From NCBI GenBank assembly GCA_028285755.1, contig JANQOQ010000004.1, forward strand, positions 134,720 through 198,719: 64,000 bases of DNA, given 5' to 3'. The position numbers and the translations under genes are program-made. This DNA is from Puniceicoccaceae bacterium (GTDB lineage Bacteria; Verrucomicrobiota; Verrucomicrobiia; Opitutales; JAFGAQ01). The first letter of the stretch is position 1; the number at the start of each line of letters is the position of its first letter. A model generated the notes under the pieces. That model made no database searches and was not told the origin of the DNA. It saw only the letters and a list, made by a program, of their open reading frames with translations. Positions 1 to 6,195 of the stretch are shown in pieces.

Positions 1-1586
1 TCCTTACGATCTTCCGGTGTAAAGCTGAGATCCTGGTTCAGACCATGCCGGATGTTATCACCATCGAGTATATAGGCTTTTTTACCAGCGGCTACTAGCT
101 TCGCCTCCAATACCTGAGCGATTGTCGACTTTCCGGAACCGCTTAAACCTGTCAACCAGAGTGTTTGCGGCGCATGCCCCATAAGCGTATTGCGCTCGTC
201 CCGGCTTACCTGGCCTTTTTCCCAATTAACATTACGCGGGCCTGAAACGGTCTTTTTCTCCTCAACCCTCTGACGGATAATCATCCCTGCAGCAAGTGTT
301 GCATTCGTGACGGTATCAATGAGGATGAACGACCCGGTTTTACGGTTTCGGCTGTAGTTATCAAAGCTGAAGGGACGGTGCGCAGTGAAGCCCACACGGC
401 CTATTTCGTTCATCTCAAGCTCAGTGCTGTCCTCGCGACCCAAATTATTGATATCAAAGCGATAGCGGACGCCATCCAGGGTGACCGGTACCGTTTGAGT
501 GGTCGTTTTCAACAAATAGTTTCTACCGGATTGCAGTGGGGTCTCATGCATCCAGACGACGGTTGCATCAAACCCGCTTTCCACGTGTGGACGGTTATTT
601 GGATGGCTTAAAACATCTCCACGGCTGATATCGACTTCTTCATCGGTAGTTACCGTAACTGCCATCGGTGCAAAGGCTTCCGGTATTTCGCCGTTGTAGG
701 TCTCAATGCTTTTGATTTTTGCCTTTTTGCCGGATGGATTGACGATCACGCTGTCACCTTTGCGCATAATGCCGGAAACAACGGTACCGGAAAATCCGCG
801 GAAATTCAGGTCAGGCCTCAATACGTACTGCACCGGGAAGCGAAGGTCGATCAAATTGCGGTCGGCACTGATTTCAATGGCCTCCAGGTAACTTAACAAA
901 GGTCGCCCATCAAACCAGTCCATATTTTCACTGCGGTCGACTACATTATCCCCCTTAAGTGCAGAGATGGGTAAAAAGTGGATATTAACGTCCTGGAATT
1001 TCGCCGCAAAGCTCAGATAGTCTTTACGGATTTTTTCAAAAACATCCTGATCGTAGTCCACCGCATCCATCTTGTTGACGGCAATAATAAGATGGCGAAT
1101 ACCGAGCAAACTCGCAATGAAGCTGTGGCGCTTCGTCTGCGGCATGACTCCATGCCGTGCATCAATTAACACAATGGCTACATCACAGTGGCTGGCTCCG
1201 GTGGCCATATTGCGCGTATATTGCTCATGCCCCGGCGCATCACAGATTATGAAACTACGCTTTTCTGTCGAGAAGTAGCGGTAGGCGACATCGATCGTAA
1301 TCCCCTGCTCACGCTCAGCCTTAAGCCCATCGGTCAGCAGTGCCGGATCGAAATCATCATTGGTCGTCCCGTGCACCTTGGAATCTTTCATCACCGCGGC
1401 CAGCTGATCCTCGTAGATCATCTGTGAATCGTAGAGCAGACGCCCGATCAATGTAGACTTACCATCATCCACACTTCCACAGGTCAGGAAGCGAAGCATG
1501 TCTTTTTCCTCGTGGCGTTTGAGGTAGGCTGAAATATCGGAGCGGATTAAATCCTGCTCCCTCACTTTATAATTCGTTTCAGACAT
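1..1586 (-). CDS. cysN: Bifunctional sulfate adenylyltransferase subunit 1 / adenylylsulfate kinase (CysNC); C-terminal end lies beyond the window edge
   Basis: Absent from the ORF track because it has no stop in the window. My own minus-strand translation from the ATG (complement of 1584-1586) gives [51 protein letters not shown] (GTPase G1), then ..[20 protein letters not shown]... Near the window edge it gives ..[16 protein letters not shown].. and ..[23 protein letters not shown] (APS-kinase P-loop and motif). It starts 11 nt downstream of cysD. Confidence 0.9.
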
Positions 1587-1597
1587 AGTCTTAATTA

Positions 1598-2506
1598 TTA
1601 GAAATAACCGTCTCGTTTTTTATCTTCCATGCTGGCACCCCCATCATAGTCGATCACTCTGCCCTGGCGCTCCGATGTCGTCGTCAGCAGCATTTCCTGA
1701 ACAATATCTTCCACGGATTCTGCTTCGGATTCTACTGCACCGGTTAGAGGATAGCAGCCAAGTGTGCGGAATCTTACCTTCTTCATTTCGGGCTTTTGGC
1801 CGGGCTCAAAGCGCATGCGATCATCATCTACCATGATCATCACACCGTCCCGCTCGACTACAGGCCTTTCCTTGGCAAAATAAAGAGGAACAATGGGAAT
1901 ATTCTCAATTTGAATATAGCGCCAGATATCGAGCTCAGTCCAGTCAGACATGGGAAATACCCGTATGGACTCCCCCTTGTTGATCTTGGTATTATATAAA
2001 TCCCAGAGCTCAGGTCGCTGGTTTTTAGGATCCCATTGGTGAAACTGATTGCGGAAGCTAAATACCCGCTCTTTGGCTCTCGATTTTTCCTCATCCCGAC
2101 GTGCACCCCCAAATGCCGCATCAAATTTATACTTGTTCAGCGCCATTTTCAGTGAATCCGTTTTCATAATTTGGGTATGTTTTTCCGTACCGAAATCAAA
2201 CGGATTCACCCCCGCTGCCCTGCCCTCTTCATTAATATGCACGATCAGATCAATGGCAGGATCGTCCGCGATCATCTGGCGAAATTTGTACATTTCCTGG
2301 AACTTCCAGGTTGTATCCACATGCAAAAGCGGGAATGGAATCTTTGCGGGATGAAAAGCTTTACGCGCCAAATGAAGGAGTACCGAAGAGTCCTTTCCGA
2401 TGCTGTAGAGCATAACCGGATTAGAAAACTCCGCAGCGACTTCACGCATGATATGGATGCTTTCAGCCTCAAGTTGCCTTAAGTGTGTGATATTGTAATC
2501 TGTCAT
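1598..2506 (-). CDS. cysD: Sulfate adenylyltransferase subunit 2 (CysD)
   Basis: 302-aa ORF. N-terminus [47 protein letters not shown] is the PAPS-reductase-fold CysD signature. Directly upstream of cysN. Confidence 0.95.
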
Positions 2507-2628
2507 CGTCGATTAATTAACTTGCTTGTGACAATAGGCTATTCAAGCCATTTGTGATCTTTATCAAGTAAAGAAGCGCAATAAAAAATATACTGATATG
2601 CGGTTACCCCGGATAAACAAAACTGCGC

Positions 2629-2693
2629 AAAAAAAAACATTCGGTGCTTTGAAAAGGTAACCTCCAATACCTCTAAATCCAAAGCACCGAATG
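2629..2693 (-). terminator. Rho-independent terminator-like element in the cysD leader (candidate attenuator, riboswitch expression platform, or 3' end of an unannotated sRNA)
   Basis: Perfect 14-bp inverted repeat: cattcggtgctttg (2638-2651) and caaagcaccgaatg (2680-2693). An inner 5-bp stem pairs aggta (2655-2659) with tacct (2668-2672). On the minus strand the hairpin is followed immediately by nine U (A-run 2629-2637 on plus). No U-tract follows it on the plus strand. It lies about 120 nt upstream of the cysD ATG. Confidence 0.6.
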
Positions 2694-2871
2694 CAAGAAG
2701 TTAAAAAGATAGGTAATGATGTATATTCTTTGCACTCGATTTCACTTTTCAATTTCTTTCTAAAATTGGGAATAAAGAAATCCGAACGATATCTAATTTT
2801 GATAAAATACTTAATTATTTCCGTTTTGCATTATTCTTGATGTTACAAAAGTCTGTGCTAATGATTTACTT

Positions 2872-3309
2872 ATGAGAAAGCGAATACTGGTCATAAACGG
2901 CCCCAATCTCGGACGTCTGGGTAAGCGCGAGCCGGAAATTTATGGTAGTACCACCTTGCAAGAGCTCGAAGAGCGGCTCATTGAGTATGGCAATTCGAAG
3001 GATACTGATGTCATTTGCTTTCAATCCAACCATGAAGGCCGGATAATCGATCGCCTGGAAAAAGCGGTCGATGAAGAAGTGAGTGGATGTATTTTAAATG
3101 CTGCTGCCCTAACCCATACCAGCGTAGCCCTTCTGGATGCCGTAAAAAGCTGCAACATCCCGACCGTCGAGCTCCATATCTCGAATATTCACAAACGCGA
3201 GGAATTCCGCAAAAAGAGTATCACCGCACCCGCTTGTGTTGCATCAATCTCAGGCATGGGTCTGCATGGTTACGAATACGCACTCGATTTCTTAATTAAG
3301 CAGAGCTAA
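2872..3309 (+). CDS. aroQ: 3-dehydroquinate dehydratase, type II
   Basis: 145 aa with ILVINGPNLGRLGKREPEIYG, HEG, ALTHTSVAL and ELHISNIHKREEFR blocks typical of type II dehydroquinase. Confidence 0.95.
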   Translation: MRKRILVINGPNLGRLGKREPEIYGSTTLQELEERLIEYGNSKDTDVICFQSNHEGRIIDRLEKAVDEEVSGCILNAAALTHTSVALLDAVKSCNIPTVELHISNIHKREEFRKKSITAPACVASISGMGLHGYEYALDFLIKQS

Positions 3310-3318
3310 ATTCGCTGA

Positions 3319-3735
3319 ATGAATAATAGTCCGCTACTGAAGAAGGCCTACGAATTCGCAAAAGAAGCCCGCTTGAGAGCCCATGCTCCCTACTCTGAAT
3401 TTAAAGTAGGTTGTTGCCTGAAACTCAGAAATTCGGATGAATTAATAGTCGGCTGCAATGTTGAAAACGCGAGTTACGGGCTGACGACGTGCGCAGAGCG
3501 CACCGCAATATTCAAAGCCATCGCAGAGCGAGGCACTATTGACCCTGAGTATTTGGTAGTGGTTACAGATGCAGACCCCCCTGCTCCTCCCTGCGGTCCC
3601 TGTCTGCAGGTCATGGCTGAATTTTGCCAGCCCCATTGCGAAATCTATTTGGCGAATCTTAAGGGGATACAGGAAAAACTATTGTTTAAGGAGTTACTTC
3701 CCAAGCCGTTCCACCTAAAATTTTGGAGTATCTGA
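3319..3735 (+). CDS. cdd: Cytidine deaminase
   Basis: 138 aa with the CAERTAIFKA and PCGPCLQVMAEF zinc-ligand motifs of the cytidine deaminase family. Confidence 0.85.
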   Translation: MNNSPLLKKAYEFAKEARLRAHAPYSEFKVGCCLKLRNSDELIVGCNVENASYGLTTCAERTAIFKAIAERGTIDPEYLVVVTDADPPAPPCGPCLQVMAEFCQPHCEIYLANLKGIQEKLLFKELLPKPFHLKFWSI

Positions 3736-5868: not shown

Positions 5869-6195
5869 TTAATCTACCTTGCAGTATATTTGATAGAGCA
5901 AACCCAGGATACTGCGAACATCATCCCGGGTGACTCTATAAAAAACTTGCTGATGATGCTTCCGGGTGCCCACCATACCCTCTGCACGCAATTTGGCCAG
6001 ATGTTGGGAGAGCGCAGACTGGCTTAAATCCAATTTTGACTGCAGCTCAGAAACCGACAACTCCTCTTCCATCAATAAATGACACAAAATCATGAGGCGC
6101 TGAGGATTACTGAGCGCATTTAGAGTAGCCGCCGCATTGCTGGCCTTATCCAGCATTTCATCGAGATTCAATTCAGAGGGAGATTCTACGGACAT
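5869..6195 (-). CDS. ArsR/SmtB-family winged-helix repressor, two-Cys SqrR/BigR-like (candidate persulfide sensor)
   Basis: 108 aa with HTH ELSVSELQSKLDLSQSALSQHLAKLRAEGMV. The only two cysteines are Cys38 (PQRLMILCHLL) and Cys105 (LLYQIYCKVD). There is no ELCVCDL-type metal site. Confidence 0.85.
   Translation of the reverse strand: MSVESPSELNLDEMLDKASNAAATLNALSNPQRLMILCHLLMEEELSVSELQSKLDLSQSALSQHLAKLRAEGMVGTRKHHQQVFYRVTRDDVRSILGLLYQIYCKVD

Follow-up and report, generated by a model that had tools for sequence, protein, structure and literature searches.

Genes and features of the aroQ–cysD spacer

The window (the whole stretch of 64,000 nucleotides analysed here) opens in a sulfate-activation operon on the minus strand, in which cysNC starts 12 nt past the stop codon of cysD. 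A spacer of 365 bp (2507–2871) separates cysD from the divergently read aroQ, behind which lies cdd. The spacer holds a terminator hairpin on the cysD strand that an initial annotation, made from the same DNA, had described as an orphan with aroQ divergent from it. This description stands: the gene identities are confirmed, and no minus-strand gene was found between aroQ and the hairpin. The features of the locus are listed below, with their state in L169, a 1,239-bp Tara Oceans scaffold that carries the start of cysD, a complete spacer and aroQ.

3–1586, minus strand: cysNC (NF004035, 800 bits), running off the start of the window
1598–2506, minus strand: cysD, sulfate adenylyltransferase subunit 2 (NF009214, 520 bits), with its ATG at 2506
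2507–2611, minus strand: cysD-proximal region, 89% identical to L169, with TTGAAT at 2546–2541
2612–2628, minus strand: 17-nt segment past the U-run, GCGCAGTTTTGTTTATC, invariant in L169
2629–2637, minus strand: U9 tract directly abutting the stem; U8 in L169
2638–2693, minus strand: terminator hairpin, made of a 14-bp stem with two extra pairs, a 4-nt bulge, a 6-bp inner stem and the loop UUGGAGGU
2694–2720, minus strand: C/U-rich single-stranded segment AUCAUUACCUAUCUUUUUAACUUCUUG, 27 nt, without substitutions in L169 and unpaired in both the MFE and the centroid structure
2629–2720, minus strand: putative small RNA of ~92 nt, its 5' end placed from the onset of conservation and the promoter-like hexamers
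2725–2752, minus strand: promoter-like TTGAAA (2752–2747), 16-nt spacer and AAGAAT (2730–2725), 9/12 matches, with a predicted start near 2718
2752–2781, minus strand: AT-rich hairpin atttcttt/aaagaaat, at chance level and outside the element
2872–3309, plus strand: aroQ, divergent from the hairpin element
3319–3735, plus strand: cdd

Read directly on the minus strand, CATTCGGTGCTTTG (2693–2680) pairs with CAAAGCACCGAATG (2651–2638) in a perfect 14-bp stem followed by U9, exactly as annotated. RNAfold lengthens this stem by a G.U and an A-U pair and closes the loop with an inner stem, GAGGUA/UACCUU, which is therefore present as had been noticed, with 6 bp instead of the 5 first counted. Only 7 of the 14 pairs of the core are G-C, although stems of intrinsic terminators are typically G+C-rich. 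The 56-nt hairpin folds at −30.0 kcal/mol, compared with −9.7 ± 2.5 kcal/mol for its shuffles (z = −8.23; none of 200 shuffles as good). Its stem is the longest perfect inverted repeat of the 64 kb (arms at most 60 nt apart), and two scans covering every T-run on either strand ranked the 2638–2693 site first, by far, among hairpins followed by a T-run; few of the other candidates have the textbook form, and all are far weaker. A consensus terminator scan missed this hairpin because it allows loops of 8 nt at most. The two features that define an intrinsic terminator, a stable stem-loop and a U-tract directly 3' of the stem, are both present in 2629–2693, and the end of the U-run lies 122 nt from the cysD ATG. 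The initial claim of a strong Rho-independent terminator about 120 nt upstream of cysD is thus borne out on both counts.

Textbook intrinsic terminators are rare across the window as a whole (1–64000), and in the source genome most termination may occur by other means.

The invariant loop and bulge (2653–2672, minus strand) hold GGA/GGAGG motifs, within UUGGAGGU in the loop and GGAUUUAGAGG at the bulge, which resemble Shine–Dalgarno or CsrA-type GGA motifs. Directly past the terminator, a second stem, GCGCAGU/AUUGCGC (2576–2628, minus strand), can form from 7 bp around a 39-nt loop and is followed by UUCUUUACUU. It folds at −11.7 kcal/mol (z = −1.1). In L169 its arms are unchanged and its loop carries 4 substitutions, a pattern that is not statistically significant.

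A further hairpin had been annotated in the AT-rich part of the leader, at 2752–2781. Its coordinates were right, but it does not qualify as a leader structure: it folds at −4.4 kcal/mol (z = −0.36), a stability that 66 of 200 shuffles reach, and a substitution in its arm in L169 (2780 T>A) costs it a pair. We regard it as no more than is expected by chance in AT-rich DNA.

An invariant block and the cysD loci of relatives

By using an AroQ search, we identified L169, whose AroQ protein is 88% identical to that of the window and which is the only relative found to share the aroQ–cysD junction. Coding identity between the two sequences is 86% in aroQ and 91% in cysD, and 9 of 27 third codon positions in aroQ and 9 of 35 in cysD differ (about 26–33%). 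The spacer is 76% identical over 2871–2753, where a 5-nt stretch upstream of 2752 has been replaced, 87.5% identical in the promoter region (2752–2721) and 89% identical in the downstream leader (2611–2507). Between these flanks, the 109 nt from 2720 to 2612 show zero substitutions and one T fewer in the homopolymer (T9 vs T8), the first difference downstream of the block being at 2611; the scaffold also has an N10 gap at the equivalent of about 2761, outside the block. Permutation of the spacer's differences produced identical stretches of 109 nt or longer in 4 of 200,000 trials; counting the T indel as a difference too shortens the observed stretch to 83 nt, a length reached or exceeded in 183 of 200,000. 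This pattern shows purifying selection, at the sequence level, on exactly the 2720–2612 block. Because the loop, the bulge and the unpaired 5' segment are all invariant, the constraint bears on the RNA or DNA sequence and extends beyond the stem that termination needs. As there are only two sequences and they are identical in the block, they offer no covariation, and constraint on structure is inseparable from constraint on sequence. Within the block, the 27-nt AUCAUUACCUAUCUUUUUAACUUCUUG segment is a candidate seed or protein-binding segment, and GCGCAGTTTTGTTTATC could either be sequence distal to the terminator or mark where the control region of cysD begins. We conclude, from the hairpin and from this comparison, that the terminator at 2638–2693 is real, orphan and under selection, its termination activity being predicted. 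A terminator with these properties needs an explanation.

Homology searches did not extend the family. Blastn and nhmmer searches with the 365-nt leader matched L169 only, as did a blastn search with the 109-nt block and a covariance model built from it. The covariance search covered 596 kb of the relatives' cysD and aroQ loci, and it returned no further copy in the window plus 92 loci. A repeat element (REP/MITE-like) should have several copies, whereas neither the arm nor the block was found a second time in the 64 kb or among 169 related loci; a hairpin scan of viral contigs gave 0 matches. A literature search yielded nothing pertinent on a cysDN-linked small RNA or on small RNAs of Verrucomicrobia. 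The RNA of the element thus matches no described family, although orphan-terminator small RNAs and terminated leaders are well-known kinds of object.

The best CysD matches (86–88% identity) come from MAGs labelled Opitutales, Puniceicoccaceae (Verrucomicrobiota), which have neither the junction nor the element; by search, the closest CysD is 88% identical in genome contigs and 79% in metagenome contigs. One contig (L081) encodes a CysD with 94% identity and includes only 35 nt of upstream sequence. Conservation of the hairpin in relatives, on which the initial annotation had made its proposal depend, is accordingly partial: the hairpin is kept in L169 and absent where CysD is 86–88% identical. 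In four of the related loci (L082–L085), an S24-peptidase-like gene lies co-directionally upstream of cysD, and in three of them (L082, L084 and L085) its canonical terminator, GAGAACGGTTTC..GAAACCGTTC-T7/8, is found 130–150 nt before the cysD ATG. Like that of the window, this terminator is a hairpin with T7–8 on the same strand, at that distance from cysD, but throughout L082–L088 it ends a protein-coding gene, and its GAGAACGGTTTC stem is unrelated to the element. L086 and L087 have a DUF2061 gene between the terminator of the S24-type gene and cysD, the ORF ahead of cysD in L001 (491 aa) is divergent, and the AroQ relatives L170–L172 (66–74% identity) keep aroQ-cdd with other upstream neighbours. 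Since all of these loci (L001, L082–L088, L170–L172) have other neighbours, the aroQ–cysD junction is recent and lineage-specific.

These loci also bear on where transcription of cysD starts. In L082, L084 and L085, the terminator of the upstream gene stands just before cysD, which must therefore use a proximal promoter there, and L082, L084, L086 and L087 share TTGAAC/TTGATT at about −42 with a −10-like hexamer at about −18. In the window, TTGAAT (2546–2541) stands 40 nt before the start codon of cysD and is possibly part of cysD's own promoter; no clear sigma-70 promoter for cysD could be pinned down downstream of the terminator in the window. Neither the window nor the relatives have a Shine–Dalgarno-like run before cysD. 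Taken together, the terminators of L082, L084 and L085, the shared −42/−18 motifs, the TTGAAT at −40 and the lack of a Shine–Dalgarno run argue that cysDN of the window probably uses its own proximal promoter.

The −35/−10-like motifs of the relatives stop about 10 nt before the cysD ATG, which suggests that the cysD mRNA of this group may be near-leaderless. Behind their S24-peptidase-like gene, which encodes 126 aa, come ~115 nt of conserved, structured 3' sequence (with a TGACGG..CCGTCA hairpin) and then the terminator GAGAACGGTTTC-N4-GAAACCGTTC-T7/8 (L082 2236–2390; L084/L085 2258–2400; also in L086 and L087); this region may represent a 3'-UTR element or a separate small RNA. Several relatives also have, between cysD and cysNC, a 122–124-aa gene of the 23S_rRNA_IVP/bAvd-like four-helix-bundle type (L082 3463–3837; L084/L085 3461–3829; L001 3946–4320), which the window lacks.

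A candidate small RNA and the competing explanations

The TTGAAA-16-AAGAAT site is the sole promoter-like site on the minus strand of the spacer, and the invariant block begins 4–5 nt past its −10-like hexamer. L169 keeps both hexamers and differs at 2738 and 2731, in the 16-nt spacer, and at 2723 and 2721, past the −10 but before the block; the chance that four substitutions spare both hexamers is about 0.15. In an 8-kb scan, promoter-like matches were fewer than in shuffles (7 vs 13.3). We take this as weak evidence that the site is the promoter of the element. When folded (−32.5 kcal/mol, z = −7.4), the 92-nt RNA that it would produce leaves a 26-nt 5' tail unpaired ahead of the hairpin, and this one dominant structure accounts for 53% of the ensemble. 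No conserved ORF crosses the block in any of the three minus frames or in a plus-strand 49-aa ORF, which is truncated in L169, and the T8/T9 difference shifts the frame of every ORF that crosses the U-run; the block therefore appears non-coding.

From these elements we propose the following scheme. The sigma-70-like promoter at 2752–2725 would start transcription near 2718–2720 and give a transcript with a 26–27-nt unstructured C/U-rich 5' segment, the stable hairpin 2693–2638 and a U9 tail, at which RNA polymerase would terminate. The product would be a non-coding RNA of ~92 nt, forming an independent transcription unit on the cysD strand, while cysDN would be transcribed from its own promoter in the 122 nt between the terminator and cysD. 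The reading that we favour, with about an even chance of being correct, is a small RNA gene of ~92 nt that is restricted to this lineage and has its own promoter. Of the options raised by the initial annotation, that of an unannotated small RNA ending at the terminator is the best fit to the conservation pattern, the transcript itself being a prediction. Conservation above the neutral level is confined to the putative transcript except that it overshoots the U-run, and these 17 invariant nt are not explained by an RNA that ends at the terminator. The link with sulfur is one of location only, and no convincing partner for the tail was found among the 58 gene starts in the window.

The strongest competitor, which we nevertheless consider doubtful, is attenuation in cis. 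cysDN would then be transcribed from the 2752–2725 promoter, and the terminator would stop most transcripts 122 nt before cysD unless read-through is allowed by a factor, a trans-acting RNA-binding antiterminator protein or an RNA, that would, when sulfur is limiting, bind the 27-nt segment, the 5' arm or both. The short RNA ending at the terminator would in that case be a by-product that might have another function in trans. The element is indeed directly upstream of cysDN and co-directional with it, and the invariance of both the single-stranded segment beside the 5' arm and the 17 nt past the U-run is what would be expected if the RNA continues; that no clear sigma-70 promoter was found for cysD downstream speaks in the same sense. 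However, this would be an extremely strong terminator, with no competing antiterminator fold within the conserved RNA. When the 3' arm was blocked, the best alternative fold reached −39.9 kcal/mol compared with −51.3 kcal/mol, that is, 11 kcal/mol weaker. In this fold the beginning of the 5' arm, TTCTTGCATTCG (2700–2689), is paired with 2738–2726, a partner that lies upstream of the predicted start and outside the block and has 2 substitutions in L169, and we rejected this weak helix as an antiterminator. Folding of the full leader by RNAfold also pairs the tail with positions −24 to −13 of cysD and its AUG, which would suit attenuation, but the energy of the duplex between the tail and the cysD initiation region (−10.8 kcal/mol) is at the genomic background, equalled by 205 of 2326 random 55-nt windows (9%). 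Among the 58 gene starts the best tail duplexes range from −12.3 to −10.7 kcal/mol, and cysD comes third; its side of the pairing is altered in L169 (2527 A>T) and missing in L081. Base-pairing between the tail and the start region of cysD, whether long-range or in trans, was thus discarded as neither above background nor conserved. Finally, the CysD relatives manage with a proximal promoter, and a cysD without a Shine–Dalgarno run is compatible with a very short leader. Of the attenuator that had initially been put forward, the forms based on a leader peptide or on alternative folds are unsupported for lack of a conserved ORF and of a competing fold, and what is left is the trans-factor form, to which the above doubt applies. 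A fuller version, a new sulfur-responsive cysDN attenuator of marine Verrucomicrobiota in which the factor reads the 27-nt segment and the GGAGG loop and the 92-nt RNA is perhaps trans-acting, is more tentative still.

That the element makes no functional RNA at all is unlikely in our view. It might be a constitutive insulator against stray minus-strand transcription antisense to aroQ-cdd, or a protein-binding DNA site serving the divergent promoters. Such a role would suit a junction that is lineage-specific and was made by rearrangement. It would also suit the relatives, in which the terminator of an upstream gene stands just before cysD or before the intervening DUF2061 gene, and it would accommodate an invariance that continues beyond the U-run. 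Yet a stem and a U-run would suffice for an insulator, whereas here invariance also extends to the loop (8 nt), the bulge (4 nt) and the 27-nt segment, against a divergence of about 10–25% in the flanks. We know of no DNA-site architecture composed of 14-bp arms 28 bp apart followed by A9/T9, which counts against a protein-binding site. A decaying relic of a lost gene's terminator is excluded, because no other part of the spacer is as well conserved as the block, which is not what decay would leave.

A metabolite riboswitch, with the hairpin as expression platform and SAM, cysteine, APS/PAPS or a similar ligand, was another of the initial suggestions and is now very improbable. Its location upstream of a sulfur-assimilation operon is what one would expect, and the whole leader folds somewhat better than its shuffles (z = −2.7), but this excess comes from the terminator. 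From the promoter-like site to the hairpin (2694–2752), the sequence is in fact less structured than its shuffles (z = +1.3), and the 27 conserved, unstructured nt ahead of the hairpin leave no room for an aptamer. Further upstream, beyond 2752, the sequence is only 76% identical in L169 and includes the 5-nt replacement. Searches of Rfam 15 gave no match at E ≤ 10 in 2300–3100, for T-boxes or any other family, and none at the gathering score across the window (cmscan); this agrees with the initial remark that no core of a known sulfur riboswitch could be recognised. The structure also lacks an antiterminator alternative, and the covariance model of the block matches no other cysD or aroQ locus in the 596 kb of relatives. 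Least credible of all is ribosome-mediated attenuation through a Cys-rich leader peptide, for which one might invoke a 62-aa TTG ORF (2752–2564) that has 4 Cys codons in the window, two of them (TGC ATT CGG TGC) inside the 5' arm of the terminator, but which starts at a TTG without a clear ribosome-binding site, runs through the terminator, unlike known leader peptides, has its downstream frame shifted by the T8/T9 difference and is broken in L169 by a stop at codon 10 (TAT>TAA), so that this explanation is refuted unless L169 is misassembled there.

Relation to known RNA elements

Base-pairing or protein-binding small RNAs of bacteria combine a single-stranded seed with a Rho-independent terminator and a long U-tail, and the enterobacterial Hfq-dependent RNAs RyhB, MicA and SgrS, in which the seed is at the 5' end, are examples. 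The candidate small RNA resembles this type in its length of ~90 nt, its own promoter-like site, its conserved unstructured 5' segment, its lack of an ORF and its strong terminator hairpin with at least 8 U, and also in the way it came to light, through the classical signature of an orphan terminator and intergenic conservation. It differs in being unrelated to any Rfam family, by sequence or by covariance model, and in being known from two genomes only, as a predicted RNA of an uncultured marine Opitutales/Puniceicoccaceae-like verrucomicrobium.

SreA and SreB of Listeria are short riboswitch-derived RNAs that arise from premature termination of leaders and act in trans. Similarly, early termination of the Shiga-toxin transcript releases a short RNA from its 5' leader (PMC7547250). 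The locus studied here shares with these systems a strong terminator soon after a promoter, co-directional with and upstream of an operon, and the terminated product of 2720–2629 could likewise be the functional molecule. On the other hand, those leaders carry a defined sensor (an aptamer or a site for an antiterminator protein), of which none is detectable in the element of the window, and cysD of the window probably has its own proximal promoter. RNA-based control of a sulfur operon has a precedent in ubiG-mccBA of Clostridium acetobutylicum, where an S-box, a T-box and an antisense RNA are involved (PMC2566862). The likeness lies in a terminator-based RNA element beside genes of sulfur metabolism; the window differs in having no S-box or T-box match and no convergent promoters, and in belonging to a different phylum.

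The locus thus provides a concrete and sharply bounded candidate of ~92 nt beside a sulfate-activation operon, with a signature of purifying selection. If expressed, the candidate would be among the first small RNAs defined in this group, and it could reveal how sulfur assimilation is adjusted in these abundant marine bacteria, which degrade polysaccharides; should it prove to be an attenuator instead, this would be a non-riboswitch, factor-dependent one. Either reading is a prediction from two sequences. To our knowledge, almost nothing is known of RNA-based regulation in Verrucomicrobiota, especially in the uncultured marine Opitutales/Puniceicoccaceae.

At 3 kb from cysDN, the window also encodes an ArsR/SmtB-family regulator (5869–6195, minus strand), whose best partial match is the model of the sulfite-sensing BigR, with a score of 92 bits, under the cutoff of 155 bits; this regulator could be relevant to sulfur sensing.
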